DNA of 17,528 nt, taken from contig JAUYJR010000052.1 of assembly GCA_030699255.1 (NCBI GenBank), forward strand, positions 1 through 17,528, given 5' to 3'. Under the pieces are notes generated by a model, which did no database searches, was not told the origin of the DNA, and saw only the letters and a program-made list of their open reading frames with translations. The position numbers were made by a program, and so were the translations under genes. Shown here piece after piece: positions 1,600 through 11,922 of this stretch (its first letter is position 1; each line of letters starts with the position of its first letter). Source of the DNA: a bacterium. Its GTDB lineage: Bacteria; Patescibacteriota; Minisyncoccia; Minisyncoccales; UBA10102.

Positions 1600-3501
1600 T
1601 TATTTATTCTCACCCTCTTCTCCTTCTTTTTTCTCTCGATACTCGGCCTCCTGATTTTCTTCGCCTGCTTCGGAATCTTGCTTGGGATTCTCTTTCGCAT
1701 GGTTCTCATGTAAAGCAGATCCCACCTTCTGAGTTGCCTGAGAAAGATCCTCCACGGCTTTCTTTAACTCCTCTATTGTACCCTTGTCCTTCACACTTTT
1801 CAATGCCTCAATCTTTTCCCGCACCTCCTTGCGAATATCTTCAGCAATCTTTTCTCCCGCGTCTCGCAGAGATTTTTCCGCCGTGTATAAGAGGGAATCT
1901 GCAACATTTCTTGTTTCCACCAGCTCCTGCTTTTTCTTGTCTTCCTCCGCGTGAGTCTCGGCTTCTCGCTTAAGACGCTCCACCTCTTCTTCCGACATGC
2001 CAGTTGATCCCTCAATACGAATGGATTGCGATTTTCCCGAAGCTCGGTCTTTTGCCGTTACGCTCAAAATGCCATTTGCATCAATATCAAAGGTTACCTC
2101 AACCTGCGGAATGCCACGAGGAGAAGGAGGAATGCCATCTAGAATAAATCTGCCCAGAGACTTATTGTCTTGAACCATAGATCGTTCCCCTTGCACCACG
2201 TGTACATCAACGGATGTCTGATTGTCTGCCGCTGTTGAAAACACCTGCGACTTGCTTGCCGGAATTGTGGTGTTCTTTGCAATTAAGACGGTATTCACAC
2301 CTCCCAATGTCTCAATGCCCAAAGAGAGCGGGGTAACATCCAAGAGAAGAATATCCCTAACATCACCGCGGAGAATACCCCCCTGAATAGCAGCTCCAAT
2401 GGCTACCACCTCATCGGGGTTAATGGATTTGTTTGCCTCCTTGCCAAACAAAGCTTTTACTCCTTCTTGAATAGCCGGCATACGAGTCTGCCCTCCCACA
2501 AGAACAATTTCATCTATATCTTTTGCCTCAAGCTTTCCCTCTTTGAGCGTCTGTCTCACAAGGTCAAGAGATTTATCTATGTACTCCCGCACCATATTCT
2601 CCAGCTGAGATCTTGTAAGCTTGTACAATAGATGTTTGGGACCCGAAGAGTCAGAGGTAATGAAAGGAAGGTTCACTTCCGTTTCCATTGAGCTGGAAAG
2701 TTCAATTTTTGCCCGCTCGGCAGCCTCTTTAAGCCGCTGAGTAGCCAAGGGATCCTTTGCAAGATCAATGCCTTCATCTTTCTTATACTGCTCTGCCAAC
2801 CAGTCCATAATTTTCTGGTCAAAGTCTTCTCCTCCCAGATGCGTATCTCCTCCGGTTGCCTTTACCTCAATGGTGTCTTCCCCAACCTCAAGAATAGAGA
2901 TATCAAACGTTCCCCCTCCAAAGTCATACACCACAATCTTCTCGTCTTTCTTTTTGTTTAATCCATACGCAAGCGCTGCCGCCGTTGGTTCGTTAATAAC
3001 GCGTTTCACTTCAAACCCCGCAATTTCTCCCGCAACTTTTGTTGCTTTTCGCTGACCATCATCAAAGTAAGCGGGAACCGTAATAATCGCCTCGTCAATC
3101 TTTTCTCCCAACTTATCCTCCGCGTCAGCCTTGAGTTTCCGAAGCACCATGGCTGAAATCTCAGCCGGCTTATACCACTTCTCCCCCATTTTTACCTCAA
3201 CACCGCCATCTTGAGCTTCTTTAATCTCATATGAGAGGAAGCGTTTTGTATTCTGTATTTCCTTGTCAGAAAATCTCCGCCCAATAAGCCGCTTTGCAAC
3301 CGAAATGGTGAATTTTGGATTTGTTACCTGCTGGCGTCTTGCCTGCACTCCCACAAGAATTTCTCCATTTTTTGCAAGAGCCGCAACGCTTGGGGTTGTG
3401 CGGGACCCCTCTTTATTTTCAATAATCCTGGACTCCCCTCCCTCCATAACAGCCATGGCGGAAAAGGTGGTTCCTAAGTCAATGCCAAGTATTTTTCCCA
3501 T
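1600..3501 (-). CDS. dnaK: molecular chaperone DnaK (Hsp70)
   Basis: Full-length Hsp70 with hallmark motifs GIDLGTT, DLGGGTFD and [10 protein letters not shown]. Acidic C-terminal tail. Confidence 0.97.
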
Positions 3502-3518
3502 AGGTTTTGTTTATTACA

Positions 3519-4004
3519 TTACTCTTCTTTATACTGCGCAACCAGCACTCTGGCAGGACGAATAACACTCTCTGAATACCGGTATCCTTTCTCCGCAACA
3601 CGGACAATTGTTCCCGGTGGAGCATGTACTCCTTCAACTTCTCCAATTGCTTCGTGGAGCGCGGGATTAAAGGACTCCCCTTCTGCTGGCGCAATTTCCT
3701 GAATTCCACACAAGGCCAACGCGCTCCGCAACTGGGACTGAATTTGAGAGAGCCCCAAACTCATATCTTTGTTTGAATCGTAAGAAACTTGCAGGGCGCG
3801 CTCAAGACTATCAAGAACCGGAAGAAGCCGCTGGAGAATATCTTTCTTTGCTCGTAGCTCCACATCTTGCCTGCGGGAACTCTCGCCCTTTTTGTAATTC
3901 TCAAAATCTGCCTGCGTTCTCTTCCAGTTATTCATACACTCATAAAGCTCAGCCTCCAACTTTTGGGAATCCGGCTTCTCATTTGTTTTTTCTTTTTGCT
4001 TCAT
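3519..4004 (-). CDS. grpE: nucleotide exchange factor GrpE
   Basis: 161 aa with coiled-coil N-terminus and a GrpE-type C-terminus (FNPALHEAI...G.IV.V.EKGY...VIRPARV). Sits between hrcA and dnaK. 4-nt overlap with the hrcA stop. Confidence 0.9.
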   Translation of the reverse strand: MKQKEKTNEKPDSQKLEAELYECMNNWKRTQADFENYKKGESSRRQDVELRAKKDILQRLLPVLDSLERALQVSYDSNKDMSLGLSQIQSQLRSALALCGIQEIAPAEGESFNPALHEAIGEVEGVHAPPGTIVRVAEKGYRYSESVIRPARVLVAQYKEE

Positions 4005-5623: not shown

Positions 5624-6885
5624 TGCTTTTCAATAACACTCTTTCCTACAAACTTTTGAAGAATCTCCGGTACCGTAATGCTACCATCTTCCTGTTGGTA
5701 GTTTTCCATAATAGCAATGAGCGTTCTCCCAATAGGAAACCCGGTGGCATTGAGCATATGAACAAATTCCAGCTTGCCATCTTTTTTCTTCATGCGAATA
5801 TTTAGGCGTCTTGATTGAAAGTCCGTGGTATTGGATGCCGAACTCACTTCGCGGTACCTTCCCTGACCCGGGAGCCATGCTTCAATATCAATCGTAGAAA
5901 CAGCGGGGCGAGACATATCTCCCGCGGCAAGTTGCATCACCTGGTATGGAATACCAAGCGCCCGCCACAGATCCTCTTCAAAATTGAGCAGGAACCCATG
6001 TTCTTCACGGGATTTTTCAGGATGGCAGAAACTAAAGAGCTCTACTTTATCAAACTGATGAACTCTCAAGATACCACGCGTATCTTTTCCATATGAACCA
6101 GCCTCTTCTCGAAAGCATGTTGAAAAGGCAATGTAGCGCCGCGGAAGTTCTTTTTCTTCAAAAACCTCGTCGGCATGCATAGGACCTACCGCCTGCTCAG
6201 CCGTTCCAACAAGAAACAGCCCGTTTTTCTCAAGGTAGTAACGCTCCGCCAAGTCTTCCGGCGTATCCACATACCCCATCTTTTGCATCATTTCTGCTCT
6301 AATAAGAACAGGTGGAGAAATTGGCGTAAATCCTGATCTTATTCCCATATCCATCACATACCGTATGAGGGCAAGCTCAAGCAGAACCGCGTCATTCTTG
6401 AGATATGCAAAGCGAGATCCCGAAACCTTTGCCGCCCGCTCAACGTCAAGGATGCCGAGTTGTTCGCCAAGCTGAAAGTGGTCTTTTGGCTCAAACGCAA
6501 ACACGGGCTTCTCCCCCACCTGACGGATAACCTGGTTCTGATCTTCTCCACCTTCCGGCACATCATCTTGCGGAATATTTGGGAACCGCGTCATCACCAA
6601 CTTCAAAGATTCTTCCAGCTCTTTGAGAATTTCTTCTTGGGCGCGAGTTTCTTCTTTGAGCTTTTTTCCTTCCTCAATTTTCTGATTGCGATCTTCGCCC
6701 GAACTTGCTTGCACCTCCTCGGACAGCATGTTCTGTTTTGCCCTTAGCTCTTCTACTTGGAGTAGAACTACCTTTCTCCGATCATCCAGCTCAATGAGTT
6801 GCGCGGTATCAAGCGCAACCCCGCGCTTTTTGAGCGCTGTAGCCACGTATTCCGGATTCTCCCGTATACTTTTTATATCAATCAT
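5620..6885 (-). CDS. serS: seryl-tRNA synthetase
   Basis: MIDIKSIRENPE... N-terminal coiled-coil arm and a class II core (FREEAGSYGKDTRGILRVHQFDKVE, GRTLIAIMENYQ). Confidence 0.95.
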   Translation of the reverse strand: MIDIKSIRENPEYVATALKKRGVALDTAQLIELDDRRKVVLLQVEELRAKQNMLSEEVQASSGEDRNQKIEEGKKLKEETRAQEEILKELEESLKLVMTRFPNIPQDDVPEGGEDQNQVIRQVGEKPVFAFEPKDHFQLGEQLGILDVERAAKVSGSRFAYLKNDAVLLELALIRYVMDMGIRSGFTPISPPVLIRAEMMQKMGYVDTPEDLAERYYLEKNGLFLVGTAEQAVGPMHADEVFEEKELPRRYIAFSTCFREEAGSYGKDTRGILRVHQFDKVELFSFCHPEKSREEHGFLLNFEEDLWRALGIPYQVMQLAAGDMSRPAVSTIDIEAWLPGQGRYREVSSASNTTDFQSRRLNIRMKKKDGKLEFVHMLNATGFPIGRTLIAIMENYQQEDGSITVPEILQKFVGKSVIEKQ

Positions 6886-9083: not shown

Positions 9084-9539
9084 CTATGAGATACTCTTGA
9101 GCAGATACTCTGCCACTCCCCCGGGAGTTTCCACCGTAACCTTCTCTCCTTTTTTCTTTCCCAAGAGAGCAAGTCCCAAAGGAGATTCGGCCGAAAGCTT
9201 TCCCTCCAGAGGATTTGCTTCTTGGGGACCTGTAATGGTAAACACGGAAGATTCTTTTCCTTCTACCAATGTTACGGTAGAACCAATGGCAACTTTCTCG
9301 CTTTGAGATGTCTGCTCCACCACCTCTGAATTTTTAAGCATGTGCTCTATTTCAGCAACGCGTGCCTCAACAAGCCCCTGCTCTTCTTTGGTGTTGGAGT
9401 AGTCAAAGTTTTCTGAAAGATCGCCAAATGCAATTGCCTTCTGCAGGCGCTCAGCCAACTCCTTTCTCTTTGTTGTTTTGAGATACTCAAGCTCTTCTCT
9501 GAGCTTTTGCTCTCCTTCTTTTGTGATGTATCGTATCAT
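9084..9539 (-). CDS. greA: transcription elongation factor GreA
   Basis: MIRYITKEGEQKLREELEYLK...DLSENFDYSNTKEEQ...ITGPQEANPLEGKLSAESPLGLALLGKKKGE is full-length GreA (151 aa). Start moved to the ATG at 9539. The track's 82-aa N-terminal extension runs through a terminator and a repeat hairpin. Confidence 0.9.
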   Translation of the reverse strand: MIRYITKEGEQKLREELEYLKTTKRKELAERLQKAIAFGDLSENFDYSNTKEEQGLVEARVAEIEHMLKNSEVVEQTSQSEKVAIGSTVTLVEGKESSVFTITGPQEANPLEGKLSAESPLGLALLGKKKGEKVTVETPGGVAEYLLKSIS

Positions 9540-9590
9540 AAATATATTTTGATTTTGCTTCCCTTTGTACTCTTTTTTTGCCCTTGTGTC

Positions 9591-9657
9591 AACAAAAACC
9601 GGCTTGGGGCTGTGGGCGCAACAGAGGAGAATGTTGTTGTACCCCCAGCCCCAAACC
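9591..9657 (-). terminator. intrinsic terminator closing the hammerhead/structured-RNA transcription unit
   Basis: On the minus strand GGTTTGGGGCTGGGGG (9657-9642) pairs with CCCACAGCCCCAAGCC (9616-9601). That is 16 positions with one U-G wobble and one mismatch, around a 25-nt loop. GGTTTTTGTT follows (9600-9591). The wobble exists only on the minus strand. Confidence 0.7.
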
Positions 9658-9737
9658 GACAAATGCTTGTGTATCAAAAGTGAACCAATCTCTCCGTTGA
9701 ATTCTCGTTTTGGTTTGCCAAAACAAGAACTCAGTTG

Positions 9738-9799
9738 AGAGGAGAAGTGTGAGTTGAAAGCAGGGTGCGACCTGACTCTAACCACATTTCTCCTATTTG
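9738..9799. repeat. 62-bp direct repeat, copy 1 (self-complementary hairpin)
   Basis: Identical base for base to 10268-10329. A diverged extension runs to about 9819. Confidence 0.95.
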
Positions 9800-10179
9800 C
9801 TTGCCCCTAGGAGGGGCTTGTTGGTGTCCCTACTTTTGGTAGGGACACCGTCCGTTCCATTCAGGAGGCAGATCCTCCTGACAGGATCGGATCGAATCGG
9901 CGGGACGGGGATCATCGCTGTACAGAGTACAGCGATCCCCGTTGCACCGCGGTTGCCGCGGTTGAGGGGGAACGAGTGATTCACGTGATTCGGTGGCCAT
10001 ATGGGCCACCTCCTTCCCCGACCGGGCGAATATTTTGGAATGCCCAGGCCGGCAGAAAAAGAGAAAAACGATTGAGCAATATCAGCCAAGATACAAAATA
10101 TGGGGCTGTATTGCTGTGCAAACAGATACTTCTCTCCTTCTGCCGACCCGAGCGGTGTGTGATGTAAAAGAACTTCAAT

Positions 10180-10271
10180 CTCTGTTTTCGCTCTTTTGAG
10201 CTCATCAGCTCGGACCTCCCGTAAAGCGGGACCCCGTCCCACCACGGGACAGGTACATCCGAGAAACAGAG
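10180..10271 (-). ncRNA. hammerhead self-cleaving ribozyme, type III topology
   Basis: Core CUGAUGA (10208-10202). Stem II GCUC-AAAA-GAGC. GAA (10189-10187). A 7-bp stem III includes the A15.1-U16.1 pair. U17 is at 10264. Stem I is 6-7 bp. Full parse in the findings. Confidence 0.8.
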
Positions 10272-10329
10272 GAGAAGTGTGAGTTGAAAGCAGGGTGCGA
10301 CCTGACTCTAACCACATTTCTCCTATTTG
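10268..10329. repeat. 62-bp direct repeat, copy 2
   Basis: Identical to 9738-9799, a period of 530 bp. A diverged extension runs to about 10350. Its minus-strand 3' edge overlaps stem III of the hammerhead by 4 nt. Confidence 0.95.
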
Positions 10330-10373
10330 TTGACCCCGGTGGAGGGGCTTAGTTTACGCCGAGGCGAAAGAGG

Positions 10374-10658
10374 TCATGACACACGATGGACGCGGATCAC
10401 ATGCTTGTCGCTGACGCCGGCGTTAATGCCGACTTTGTACGCCGAGGCGTACGCGACCAACTCCAGGCGCTCTCCCACCTGGAGGGCGTCGAGCAGTGGG
10501 GTCCACTGCTCCGTCAACGCCTCGACGTTCTTGTCGCTCATGCGCCCTTTGGCGCAAGAGCGAGCGTTTTCGGCCGCAATTGCGGCCAGATGCTCGGCAT
10601 CACTCGGGGCCACGGTCTGAATCTGGCCACCATAGCGACTAACCTCAAATAAATGCAT
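10374..10658 (-). CDS. hypothetical protein, 94 aa (islet ORF)
   Basis: ATG preceded by GAAGGAGGATATC, a strong SD with a 5-nt spacer. G/C-rich third codon positions throughout. I recognise no family. Confidence 0.7.
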   Translation of the reverse strand: MHLFEVSRYGGQIQTVAPSDAEHLAAIAAENARSCAKGRMSDKNVEALTEQWTPLLDALQVGERLELVAYASAYKVGINAGVSDKHVIRVHRVS

Positions 10659-10819
10659 GATATCCTCCTTCTGCCCGGATAACGTTCCGGGCCAACATAT
10701 TTGTCCACAGAAGACCTTTGCAAGATCAACTGCCTCCTGTGGAACAAGGAACCAACAATATACATTGTCTTCTCCTTGCTCCGCAGGATGGATGATATAA
10801 AAGGTACTACTGCTCTATT

Positions 10820-10856
10820 CAGAACAAGCAAACTCTCCTGTTTAAGGAGAGTTTGC
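10820..10856 (-). terminator. terminator/attenuator-like hairpin inside the 5' leader of the 94-aa ORF
   Basis: Minus strand reads GCAAACTCTCC-TTAAACA-GGAGAGTTTGC, an 11-bp perfect stem, followed by TTGTTCTG. It lies about 65-100 nt downstream of promoter P3. Confidence 0.4.
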
Positions 10857-10927
10857 GTCCATTTTCTCTTTATTGGCGCCGGTCTCTCCCCAAACCGGCG
10901 CCATCCATATGCTTGATTGTTAAGGGC

Positions 10928-10955
10928 ATTATATCACACTTTCCAGATTTGTCAA
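10928..10955 (-). promoter_or_regulatory. near-consensus sigma70 promoter P3 (extended -10)
   Basis: Minus strand reads TTGACA (10955-10950), a 16-nt spacer, then TGATATAAT (10936-10928). Confidence 0.65.
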
Positions 10956-11060
10956 GCCCTTTCATTCCCTGTGAAAATCCACTACGTCAATGAACTTTCA
11001 CAGGGAGAGCAGAGAGTAGAAAATAATTCGTGCAGTTTTATTTTCTCTCTCTGCTCTTTG

Positions 11061-11504
11061 TCACACAATAGCGGCGAGTGACGCGCCGAGGAGCTTCTCG
11101 GCAACCTGCCGAGCAAGCTCCTCCAAAGCAGAACCTTCCATGTCCTCCGGCCGGACAAGAAAGTCTGCCTTGGCAAACCCCTTGGCCGGGTCGGTAGTCA
11201 AGTCGAGTGTTACCACTCGACCCTGCCACTCAACCCAGCCATCCACACCATGGTACCGATCGGCGGGGCTGCCGACCGCAGTGTACAGACGGAGCTGGAA
11301 CCAATCTTCCAGCTCCAGCGCCATACACACCGTGGCGTGGAGATCGGAGGCCATCCGTGGGCCAGGATCGGCCGGATCCCACGGCTGGCACTCCCTCACC
11401 AGAGCCAGGGCCTGCCTGTATGGCAGGTACTCCTGGCTCTGGCGCCAGACGCACTCTCCGAGCACCTCGTGCTCAAAGAGCCTTCCAGTGTAACCGTTGC
11501 CCAC
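11061..11504 (-). CDS. hypothetical protein, 147 aa (islet ORF)
   Basis: GTG at 11504 preceded by AAAGGAGGTAAGTTC (SD AGGAGG, 7-nt spacer). Strong G/C bias at third codon positions. The track's start at 11558 lies upstream of the gene's own -10 box. I recognise no family. Confidence 0.7.
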   Translation of the reverse strand: MGNGYTGRLFEHEVLGECVWRQSQEYLPYRQALALVRECQPWDPADPGPRMASDLHATVCMALELEDWFQLRLYTAVGSPADRYHGVDGWVEWQGRVVTLDLTTDPAKGFAKADFLVRPEDMEGSALEELARQVAEKLLGASLAAIV

Positions 11505-11548
11505 GAACTTACCTCCTTTCAAATCAAATTTTGTAGTGATCTGGGAAT

Positions 11549-11577
11549 AGTATATCACAAATATAAAGAAAAGTCAA
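11549..11577 (-). promoter_or_regulatory. near-consensus sigma70 promoter P2 (extended -10)
   Basis: Minus strand reads TTGACT (11577-11572), a 17-nt spacer, then TGATATACT (11557-11549). It shares GGGCTTGAC and GTGATATA with P3. Confidence 0.65.
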
Positions 11578-11602
11578 GCCCCCTTGAGGACCTGACTATA
11601 CG

Positions 11603-11836
11603 CTATTGCCGCGTATTTTTTGGAGGCCAAAGAATCTTTACAACGCATCCTTTCTCCCCTATTGGGGAGCATTTTGGACAGTCAGCACCAAACACTGCTG
11701 TGGCACCAACTGCTCCTTTTCCCATCCTCTCCCGCAACTCCTCCTTTCTTTTGTTACTGAGGAGCTGTGCAAATCTCTCCCATTCCACGGAGTACTCTCC
11801 GCATATGGGACACTGAAAGGTAAAGATGCCCTGCAA
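11603..11836 (-). CDS. small zinc-ribbon protein, 77 aa (islet ORF)
   Basis: Two CxxC pairs (CPIC near the N-terminus, CPKC near the C-terminus). TTG start preceded by AAAGGAG with an 8-nt spacer. Confidence 0.55.
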   Translation of the reverse strand: MQGIFTFQCPICGEYSVEWERFAQLLSNKRKEELRERMGKGAVGATAVFGADCPKCSPIGEKGCVVKILWPPKNTRQ

Positions 11837-11894
11837 GATACCAGCTCCTTTCTCTACAACATGTCTACAACCGTTTTTCCTGGAGCCGAGAGGT

Positions 11895-11922
11895 ATTATA
11901 CATATTATTAAAACTGTGTCAA
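11895..11922 (-). promoter_or_regulatory. consensus sigma70 promoter P1
   Basis: Minus strand reads TTGACA (11922-11917), a 16-nt spacer, then TATAAT (11900-11895). The -35 box overlaps the mrdA TGA stop (11921-11919). Confidence 0.6.

Follow-up and report, generated by a model that had tools for sequence, protein, structure and literature searches.

The window analysed here is a stretch of 17,528 nucleotides (nt) from a bacterium of the candidate phyla radiation (CPR; Patescibacteria), namely contig JAUYJR010000052.1 of the assembly GCA_030699255.1. At positions 10180 to 10271 it carries an element which we interpret as a genuine type III self-cleaving hammerhead ribozyme of a CPR subfamily, uncoupling the cistrons of two small open reading frames (ORFs), ORF94 upstream and ORF56 downstream. 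We place the probability of this statement as a whole at about 65%. Judged by sequence and structure, it is highly probable that the element truly belongs to the hammerhead class. The motif, its family membership, the covariation, the anatomy of the junction and the coding status of both flanking ORFs are established. The genes and junction features of the window described below are all on the minus strand.

Anatomy and fold of the hammerhead

Three helices surround the catalytic core, namely stem I (6–7 base pairs, bp), stem II (4 bp) and stem III (5–7 bp). Read in the 5' to 3' direction, the 5' strand of stem III (CUCUGUU, 10271–10265) is followed by the cleavage-site nucleotide U17 (10264), which is an allowed H17 (any base except G), and by the 5' strand of stem I, CUCGGA(U), at 10263–10257. 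Next are two hairpins, HP1 (CCUGUCCC-GUGGU-GGGACGGG, 8 bp, 10253–10233) and HP2 (UCCCG-CUUUA-CGGGA, 5 bp, 10231–10217), separated by a single G (10232), and the 3' strand of stem I, (G)UCCGAG, at 10215–10209. The core CUGAUGA (C3 U4 G5 A6 N7 G8 A9; 10208–10202), stem II (GCUC-AAAA-GAGC, 10201–10190), the GAA of G12 A13 A14 (10189–10187) and the 3' strand of stem III (AACAGAG, 10186–10180) complete the element. Both the G10.1–C11.1 and the A15.1–U16.1 pairs are intact. The topology is type III, with both ends in stem III and with stems I and II capped, and cleavage is predicted between U10264 and C10263 on the basis of the core, the fold, the family alignment and the covariation. An earlier reading of this DNA from the letters alone (the sequence-only reading) had described the same minus-strand hammerhead; every sub-coordinate and letter that it gave agrees with the sequence, as does the cleavage position that it predicted immediately 3' of a repeat hairpin.

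The minimum free energy (MFE) structure of the isolated 92 nt is exactly the hammerhead (−42.2 kcal/mol, z = −3.9, equalled by none of 200 shuffles). The combination of CUGAUGA, a 4-bp stem II and GAAA is present a single time in the window, whereas 300 dinucleotide shuffles contain it 0.007 times on average, an estimate which excludes any requirement for stems I and III. The 7-bp stem III of the sequence-only reading is present as pairing, but its two outer pairs (those of C10271 and U10270) compete with two basal pairs of P0, a hairpin directly upstream, and the stem that is conserved in the family consists of the inner 5 bp, CUGUU/AACAG.

Relatives of the hammerhead in CPR genomes

Searching by sequence pattern yielded about 28 distinct relatives from CPR genomes. 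When metagenome contigs were scanned with the 27-mer CTGATGAGCTCAAAAGAGCGAAAACAG, 21 loci were obtained, of which about 12 are distinct, and the hosts in the genome scan were Uhrbacteria, Parcubacteria, Paceibacterota and Saccharibacteria, all of the CPR, in addition to one contig of a metagenome-assembled genome (MAG) labelled Gammaproteobacteria. The pattern CUGAUGA-GCUC-N4-GAGC-GAAA was found in 48 viral contigs, where about one would be expected as estimated from the size of the collection, and these contain type III and type II hammerheads sharing the same stem II. The CPR relatives are all type III.

The family has a common layout consisting of a hairpin, (N)CUGUU-H, the cleavage site, a 6-bp stem I closed by A-U, the loop UGYGUA and CUGAUGA, followed 3' of the core by a 4-bp stem II with an RAAA loop and then by GAAA-ACAG. 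The hallmarks of the subfamily are P0 abutting stem III, the CUGUU/AACAG pairing, the 6-bp stem I closed by A-U and the 4-bp stem II with its RAAA loop. In the window copy the hairpin is present within about 1 nt of stem III, together with CUGUU/AACAG and a 4-bp stem II with an RAAA loop. Three features had been called unusual in the sequence-only reading. The three-way junction in stem I is indeed special, but neither U17 nor the minimal stem II is out of the ordinary in the family: GCUC-RAAA-GAGC is the family norm for stem II, and position 17 in the relatives is C, U or A, with U17 in several of them.

A covariance model (R1) built from 21 relatives, with the window sequence excluded, matches the window at 10231–10180 alone with 40.7 bits (the next-best match in the window reaches 9.9 bits); this score is partly circular, the relatives having been fished with the 27-mer of the window itself, and R1 mis-threads the 5' half of the element. 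The 5' half, CUCUGUU-U|CUCGGA-UG (the bar marking the cleavage site), was in no search pattern and aligns in register with the family consensus in MAFFT with one 37-nt gap. It is this unsearched half that provides the non-circular evidence of membership. Across 28 sequences, 99.3% of the cells are paired and compensatory changes are seen at 10 of the 15 pairs, distributed as 6/6 in stem I, 3/4 in stem II and 1/5 in stem III, those of stem II coming from copies that the model found in one Parcubacteria MAG contig (L073, JANLIU010000041.1). The covariation score was reached by none of 500 shuffles, and slid controls pair at 36–50%. This support derives from paralogues and wider relatives and not from the near-identical orthologue of the window locus, L002.

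The relatives sit between genes of the same strand, with the upstream stop codon 9–300 nt before the hammerhead and a start codon 30–220 nt after it. A Shine-Dalgarno motif accompanies the downstream start codon in most cases, and small CxxC proteins are the products of several of these genes. The window copy occupies the same position, with ORF94 upstream and ORF56 downstream on one strand.

Some relatives deserve a separate description. At least 10 hammerheads lie on the same strand of the contig L073 in a region of about 4 kb (2350–3860 and 5650–6700). They form tandem units, in alternation with a conserved motif, about 90 nt long, of which there are 7 copies. The motif is made of three hairpins (GGUCGG..CCGAC / CUUAAGU..ACUUAAGG / GUGCUUUCGAAAGAGAGUGCUG), has 9 pairs with compensatory change and matches no Rfam family. 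It is possible that this repeat is an array of a new small RNA processed by ribozymes. The arrays flank a 592-aa DEAD/DinG-like helicase which adjoins nusA. One family copy of this contig (3219–3273) has a U10.1–U11.1 opposition (UUCC-GAAA-GGAU), and a copy in another contig (L057, 3304–3358) has a degenerate core, UUGGCGA, and is probably inactive.

An insertion in loop 1 of the window copy

HP1, the single G and HP2 together form a 37-nt insertion in loop 1 (10217–10253), which turns stem I into a three-way junction. MAFFT opens a single clean gap of 37 columns across all 26 relatives inside loop 1, and removal of the 37 nt in silico leaves CUCGGA-UGUAGG-UCCGAG, which is the 6-bp stem and 6-nt loop of the family. 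The insertion is absent from all other loci with the same 27-mer except the orthologue L002. The 6-nt U-G-Y-G-U-A loop of the subfamily is not kept, as the window copy retains stem I and the initial U and G of the loop while the remainder is interrupted by the insertion; owing to this insertion the window ribozyme is filed as a variant of the P0-hammerhead subfamily. A relative with a branched, expanded stem II instead is found at L073:2608–2692.

In natural hammerheads, the contact between loops 1 and 2 includes a pair of the 5' U of loop 1 with the 3' A of loop 2 (PMC2632901), and cleavage at physiological Mg2+ is fast only if this contact is made (PMC2632901; PMC3088659). Both of these nucleotides are retained in the window copy at the family distance from the core, and the other bases of loop 1 are replaced by the branch. 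The branch itself has two near-isoenergetic folds (ensemble frequency of the MFE structure 0.05), the centroid being one long hairpin in place of HP1 and HP2.

The P0 hairpin and the intercistronic slot

P0 (10271–10323) is a hairpin of about 20 bp with the apical loop UCGCAC (fold z = −3.7) which abuts stem III. It sits in copy A (10268–10329) of an exact 62-nt repeat, copy B of which lies at 9799–9738. In 26 of 30 family members, stem III has next to it a hairpin of 5 bp or more that ends no farther than 3 nt away, compared with 43% of shuffles. The P0-type hairpin covaries within L073, and the P0 structure is preserved despite many changes in L002 and in L081, a contig of a sister strain. 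The repeat hairpin noted upstream by the sequence-only reading is therefore present but is not incidental, being a P0 that is conserved family-wide and that recurs after the second small gene. P0 was also considered as an integron attC site and rejected: the window has no integrase, and the R''/R' core-site consensus was not found by eye.

The junctions after the two small genes of the window share the order of a small GC hairpin, CAAAUA, P0 and UCU. The small GC hairpin (CCCC-UCCACC-GGGG, 10334–10347) is the first element of the post-gene junction, and it recurs after ORF56 (9803–9817) and after a 148-aa ORF (ORF148) in L081. After ORF94, the slot that follows UCU is occupied by the hammerhead, and GAGAUUGAAGUUCUUUUACAUCACACACC-GCUCGGGUCGG comes next. 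The second junction, identified by repeat and fold at 9741–9817, combines the small hairpin (9817–9803) with P0 copy B (9793–9741); here a 16-bp hairpin closed by CUCUC/GAGAG (slot-B hairpin, 9690–9741) stands at the place of the hammerhead and is followed by GAGAGAUUGGUUCACUUUUGAUACACA. This slot-B hairpin is 96% identical to L081 2530–2585, where the same post-slot motif comes next. The sequence UUCUCCUCUGUU, in which the 3' end of P0 is joined to the 5' strand of stem III, is found a third time at 9615–9626 (minus strand), in the loop of the terminator-like hairpin of the window; this copy is not cleavable, the next base being G, and may be a remnant of another junction.

The sister strain is represented by the contigs L081 and L079, which come from the same sample and have overlapping ends (its GreA is 94% identical to that of the window). 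Its junctions have the same grammar, with plain hairpins in the slot and no hammerhead. The second L081/L079 junction matches junction A of the window on either side of the slot, reading ...CUCCC-UCU-[hairpin]-GAGAGAUUUGGAAAGUUCUUUUACAUCACACACCGCUCGGG where the window reads ...CUCC-UCU-[hammerhead]-GAGAUUGAAGUUCUUUUACAUCACACACCGCUCGGG, and the CUCU...AGAG frame by which the plain slot hairpins are closed also furnishes stem III of the ribozyme. Since plain hairpins occur in otherwise matching junctions, the ribozyme can be regarded as an interchangeable occupant of a conserved intercistronic slot.

The slot is followed by the motif AUUGAAGUUCUUUUACAUCACACACC (GUUC(U/A)UU..ACA, 10154–10179), recognised by its recurrence in relatives: GUUC(U/A)UU(G/U)ACA lies just 3' of the hammerhead in about 10 of 17 of them. 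The motif is also present in hammerhead-free junctions of the window (including 9662–9690 and 10985–11000) and of L081. One of these follows the 147-aa ORF of the window, where a hairpin AGAGCAGAGAGAG..CUCUCUGCUCU is succeeded by CCCUGUGAAAGUUCAUUGAC, the post-slot motif without a hammerhead. Two roles for the motif were tried and rejected. As a ribozyme-specific anti-helix against AAAAGAGC, GUUCUUU would not be expected to persist where the ribozyme is missing, as it does, and it shows no covariation with stem II in L073; as the −35 element of a promoter, GUUC..TTGACA has the wrong spacing to any −10-like hexamer.

A long leader hairpin comes next (10042–10153; about 25 bp of basal stem with an apical domain; −59.5 kcal/mol, z = −8.8). 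It is cut down to a 7-bp stub in L079 (17–40) and enlarged in L081 (1405–1650). Its base GCUCGGGUCGG...CCGGCCUGGGC is constant, and the interior varies from none (L079) through about 85 nt (window) to nested inserts of about 220 nt (L081), so that the hairpin resembles a palindrome gathering nested insertions.

A proposed role as punctuation between cistrons

The ribozyme probably acts as a self-cleaving punctuation between cistrons. One strong promoter (10955) would drive a polycistronic RNA of ORF94 and ORF56, and the ribozyme, all parts of which are made earlier than its local competitors, would fold during transcription and cut between U10264 and C10263. The upstream ORF94 mRNA would then end in P0 and a 2',3'-cyclic phosphate, which would protect it against 3' exonucleases. 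The ORF56 mRNA would begin with a 5'-OH and the compact body of the ribozyme and would be attacked poorly by 5'-end-dependent decay. The two messages would thereby be uncoupled in their fates. Cleavage in vivo and an effect on mRNA stability are what we infer from the anatomy of the locus. Tandem bacterial hammerheads on polycistronic RNAs have been reported to cleave in vitro, their function being still unproven (PMC3088659).

Evidence against the assignment and alternative explanations

Several observations, in addition to the partial circularity of the R1 score, weigh against the proposed ribozyme. At the gathering score, Rfam reports 23S rRNA, 5S rRNA and one tRNA in the window and no hammerhead; the best match in permissive mode, a local one to the core, is that of HH9, which scores 21.2 bits where the cutoff is 52. 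However, across 19 related loci no hammerhead passes the gathering score either, and permissive scoring of 5 related loci gave at best Hammerhead_3 with 35.3 bits against a cutoff of 48.5 (E = 8e-5). Because relatives with a textbook appearance also miss the cutoffs, the negative result for the window is uninformative, and we rejected the silence of Rfam as a refutation. The Rfam gathering threshold is conservative for this short CPR hammerhead subfamily. The sequence-only reading had counted the lack of a significant covariance-model match against the element; the Rfam search gave none, and this rule would wrongly have discarded the element, as the whole subfamily is missed.

The predicted fold in its longer context also speaks against the ribozyme. 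In the equilibrium ensemble of a 411-nt transcript, stem III has a probability of 0.09 or less, stem I of about 0.7 and stem II of about 0.6. The low value of stem III arises because P0 can extend over UGUU (AACA at 10331–10328 with 10268–10265) and because GUUCUUUU (10173–10166) can pair with AAAAGAGC. In nascent transcripts ending at 10180–10150, the enforced hammerhead fold is just 0.3–2.5 kcal/mol above the minimum, a gap that is inside the error of a folding model which leaves out tertiary energy. Modelling thus suggests that the active hammerhead fold is accessible, though not guaranteed. Because the insertion displaces most of loop 1, the window copy could moreover cleave slowly. Over the ribozyme, the sole orthologue L002 differs from the window by 3 substitutions (96.7% identity), all of them tolerable: GUA becomes GUG in the junction, a U-A pair of HP2 becomes U-G, and the outermost pair of stem III is lost. 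The ribozyme is no better conserved in L002 than its flanks. L002 was therefore rejected as a sign of selection: the conservation at a homologous locus proposed as a check by the sequence-only reading is seen, but with flanks equally alike it has little power, and the support comes from the wider family. Finally, judged by the sister-strain junctions, which do without one, the ribozyme is dispensable for the island of small genes in which it lies.

It is rather unlikely that the element is a crippled or relic hammerhead, descended from the family but left as a merely structured spacer because the branch broke the loop–loop contact or because competing folds win. Loop 1 is interrupted and loop–loop contacts matter for activity, yet the U and A of the key tertiary pair between loops 1 and 2 are kept at the family distance from the core. 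Slight changes in the geometry of stem I or II lower rates by orders of magnitude (PMC3088659). The branched stem II of L073:2608–2692 indicates that stem branching is not peculiar to the window copy. The equilibrium probability of stem III is low in long contexts, although the active fold lies within about 2 kcal/mol of the minimum. Plain hairpins hold the same slot elsewhere and a degenerate copy with the core UUGGCGA is known (L057:3304); in the window copy, however, every core nucleotide and both the A15.1–U16.1 and G10.1–C11.1 pairs are intact. A conditional (allosteric) ribozyme, in which the branch binds a protein or small molecule or switches and so sets the ratio of ORF94 to ORF56, is very unlikely. 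Such a role would suit a branch that is confined to the window locus and its orthologue, has two near-isoenergetic folds and replaces precisely the loop that controls activity. Nevertheless, outside a single orthologue of 97% identity the branch shows neither conservation nor covariation. It resembles no Rfam aptamer, and GC-rich nested hairpin inserts such as those in the leader hairpin are common elsewhere in the island, so the branch may be equally neutral.

A unit-length or circular RNA element of the retrozyme or viroid-like kind, in which a 530-nt direct repeat represents more than one unit and the ribozyme trims the RNA to monomers, is scarcely credible, despite the direct repeat of 62–70 nt that brackets the segment at 530-nt spacing and the tandem units of L073, each with a hammerhead. 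The window holds a single hammerhead (next-best R1 match 9.9 bits), a plain hairpin follows repeat copy B, the supposed unit includes a protein gene, and the repeat is a junction element found after each gene, also in the ribozyme-free strain. We accordingly rejected the 530-nt repeat as a circular-RNA unit, given the one ribozyme, the coding cargo and the nature of the repeat. The idea that the element is a chance match or a piece of coding sequence is effectively refuted already. An open frame of 174 aa (9793–10317) does span the region, but it has no homologue and no family match, the chance expectation of the motif is far under 0.01, and covariation is seen across the whole family. The 174-aa ORF is a spurious call, and the sequence-only reading was right that the type III hammerhead is unannotated and escapes protein-based annotation.

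Flanking genes and the PBP2–greA island

The genes of the window are of the housekeeping kind and run, in the direction of transcription, 23S, 5S, mreC, PBP2, the island, greA, a family-2 glycosyltransferase, lysS, serS, ftsQ, hrcA, grpE, dnaK, dnaJ and a tRNA. By GreA, the closest named relatives are Candidatus Wildermuthbacteria. The island itself is ordered, again in the direction of transcription, as a 77-aa zinc-ribbon ORF, a 147/165-aa ORF, a promoter, ORF94, the ribozyme junction, the long leader hairpin, ORF56, the second junction and a terminator-like hairpin ahead of greA. The promoter (10928–10955) is of the sigma-70 type, TTGACA-16-TATAAT with an extended TG and 12/12 consensus matches, and is presumed to be the start of the ribozyme-bearing transcript. 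It is 100% conserved in L002, and the block from 10955 to 10786 is 88% identical in L081. The terminator-like hairpin with its U-run (9594–9659; −39.5 kcal/mol, z = −6.8) is conserved in L079. A greA promoter-like sequence, TTGACA-17-TACAAA, lies at 9592–9564, and the true start of greA, as deduced from the GreA N-terminus, is at 9539. A blastn search of the 834-nt gap against phage and plasmid collections gave no match.

ORF94 (10374–10658) is an orphan gene for a small protein. Compared with L002, its differences are split 20/11/36 over the codon positions, 31 codons having changed synonymously and 22 non-synonymously, and indels are absent; from this codon-position pattern and the lack of indels, ORF94 is a real coding sequence. 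Its DNA identity to L002 (582–866) is just 76.5%, with flanks at 94–100%, and this divergence between conserved flanks suggests, at the level of sequence comparison, diversifying selection or allele replacement. ORF94 has one homologue among 5.8 billion proteins and no match in Pfam, PHROG or NCBIfam; the sole PADLOC match, Csx1 (E 0.012), is too weak to count. Its AlphaFold2 model has a predicted local distance difference test score (pLDDT) of 53.

ORF56 was previously uncalled. A Shine-Dalgarno sequence GAAGGAGG (10016–10009) lies 8 nt ahead of its ATG (10000), and its 56 codons end at the stop 9832–9830, the whole feature spanning 9830–10016. The protein ends in RCNGDRCTLY...CQEDLPPEWNGRCPYQK (RCNGDRCTLYSDD...CQEDLPPEWNGRCPYQK), a module with four cysteines. 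A phmmer search of 1.84 billion representatives found the module at the C-terminus of two proteins, P0138 (183 aa) and P0139 (148 aa), with E-values of 3–4e-5; the four cysteines are aligned, the stop codon is at the same place and BLASTP gives 54% identity over 39 aa. The C-terminal consensus shared by these otherwise unrelated proteins is RCxGxRCxLY...CQ[ED]xLPxxWNGRCxYQx-stop. Since a GC-rich contig of an unrelated organism (L082) encodes the same module with different codons, the module is conserved at the protein level and is not an echo of RNA structure. It has no Pfam match and, in a profile search, no PDB match. The start codon of ORF56 lies in the loop of a perfect 7-bp palindrome, GGUGGCC-CAUAU-GGCCACC. 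What the sequence-only reading had taken for a single downstream structured RNA thus turns out not to be one RNA gene; it comprises a leader hairpin of variable length and the Shine-Dalgarno-led ORF56 (10000 to 9830), with a module conserved in two unrelated contigs.

Two further genes of the island were seen. The 77-aa zinc-ribbon protein (CPICGEY...CPKCSP), encoded at 11603–11836 (minus strand), has no family match. The 147-aa protein at 11061–11503 (minus strand) has a GTG start near 11503 and its own promoter, TTGACT-17-TATACT, and no family match either; searches of the 165/147-aa ORF in Pfam, PHROGs, PADLOC and NCBIfam gave nothing usable.

The spacer between PBP2 and greA (window 9540–11918; L080 5691–6001; L081 and L079) is variable among strains. 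In the MAG L080 (GreA 80% identical) synteny is kept with a gap of 310 nt, compared with about 2,380 nt in the window, from which we conclude that the island of the window is an insertion. A perfect 26-nt inverted repeat, GGGGGCGGGATTCGAACTCACATCGG...CCGATGTGAGTTCGAATCCCGCCCCC, brackets the L080 spacer (5735–5995) and resembles the T-arm and acceptor of a tRNA; ARAGORN found no tRNA and no tmRNA in this spacer. The sister strain has the same promoter and leader with other cargo, namely two ORFs, one of 148 aa with the 4-Cys module and one of 239 aa, and hicAB, which is encoded on the other strand. The sister versions of the island share the promoter and leader, the repeated junction modules and the terminator and differ in their cargo, so that the island looks like an array of cassettes driven by a promoter, no recombinase being visible. 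Short-read assemblies break at the repeat or palindrome: L001 (Logan SRR13727534) ends at window position 10268, the end of the 62-nt repeat, and L002 (SRR22388049) breaks in the palindrome over the ORF56 start. These breaks suggest that such junctions are systematically fragmented in public assemblies.

A more far-reaching and distinctly doubtful proposal would make the ribozyme an interchangeable punctuation module of an undescribed CPR cassette system. One promoter would drive an array of small, fast-evolving genes with a fixed junction grammar of small hairpin, P0, slot, GUUCUUU..ACA motif and leader hairpin. Either a hammerhead or a hairpin cut by the host would occupy the slot, the branch on stem I would let a protein or ligand gate the window copy, and the L073 arrays would be the non-coding counterpart.

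Comparison with known systems and significance

Hammerheads have been known in bacteria and phages since 2010–2011, intergenic copies included. The window ribozyme shares with type III hammerheads (Rfam RF00008, clan CL00010; Perreault et al. 2011, PMC3088659) the catalytic core, A15.1–U16.1, G10.1–C11.1 and H17, as well as an open stem III with closed stems I and II. Its CUGAUGA-GCUC-AAAA-GAGC-GAAA segment is identical to that of the phage-contig hammerheads (48 contigs), and bacterial and phage type III hammerheads likewise lie between genes on a polycistronic transcript. In contrast to RF00008 members, the window copy scores under the gathering cutoff, has a three-way junction in stem I instead of a hairpin with terminal or internal loop, carries a conserved P0 fused 5' of stem III and resides in a CPR bacterium. 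In the searchable literature we found no published report of a hammerhead in CPR bacteria, and the P0-fused subfamily is absent from it.

Discontinuous or expanded hammerheads, such as that of the mammalian Clec2 3' untranslated region, carry a long stem insert. A large insert in a peripheral stem is tolerated there as in the window, with the core kept; the insert of the window, however, is a compact 37-nt double hairpin in the tertiary-contact loop, in a bacterial intercistronic setting. Early and late mRNAs of phage T7 have intercistronic processing hairpins for RNase III, and RiboJ is a synthetic insulator combining a satellite-RNA hammerhead with a hairpin in the 5' untranslated region. 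The logic proposed for the window is the same, with an intergenic cut, a protective 3' hairpin and a defined downstream 5' end, but cleavage would be autocatalytic and not by a host enzyme as in T7, whereas RiboJ is engineered. By inference, the plain slot hairpins might be RNase III substrates. Retrozymes and viroid-like RNAs use the same ribozyme class with direct repeats close by, and the relative L073 has at least 10 tandem hammerheads; the window differs from them in its single ribozyme, coding cargo, chromosomal housekeeping neighbourhood and lack of a second unit-releasing cleavage site.

What is new here is a CPR subfamily with a fused P0 that is missed by Rfam thresholds, a three-way-junction stem I, and the alternation of ribozyme and plain hairpin at an otherwise identical junction. 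The annotation also gains, as an unannotated 56-codon gene is exposed and the 174-aa ORF call is found to be spurious. A natural variant in which the tertiary-contact loop is replaced by a three-way junction is of use in structure–function work and is a possible precedent for engineered aptazymes. Hammerheads are the best-known self-cleaving RNAs, their roles in bacteria are unproven, and this locus provides a testable subfamily from the poorly studied CPR. Sister strains with either a ribozyme or a plain hairpin in one slot constitute a natural experiment on hammerheads as intercistronic processing signals.

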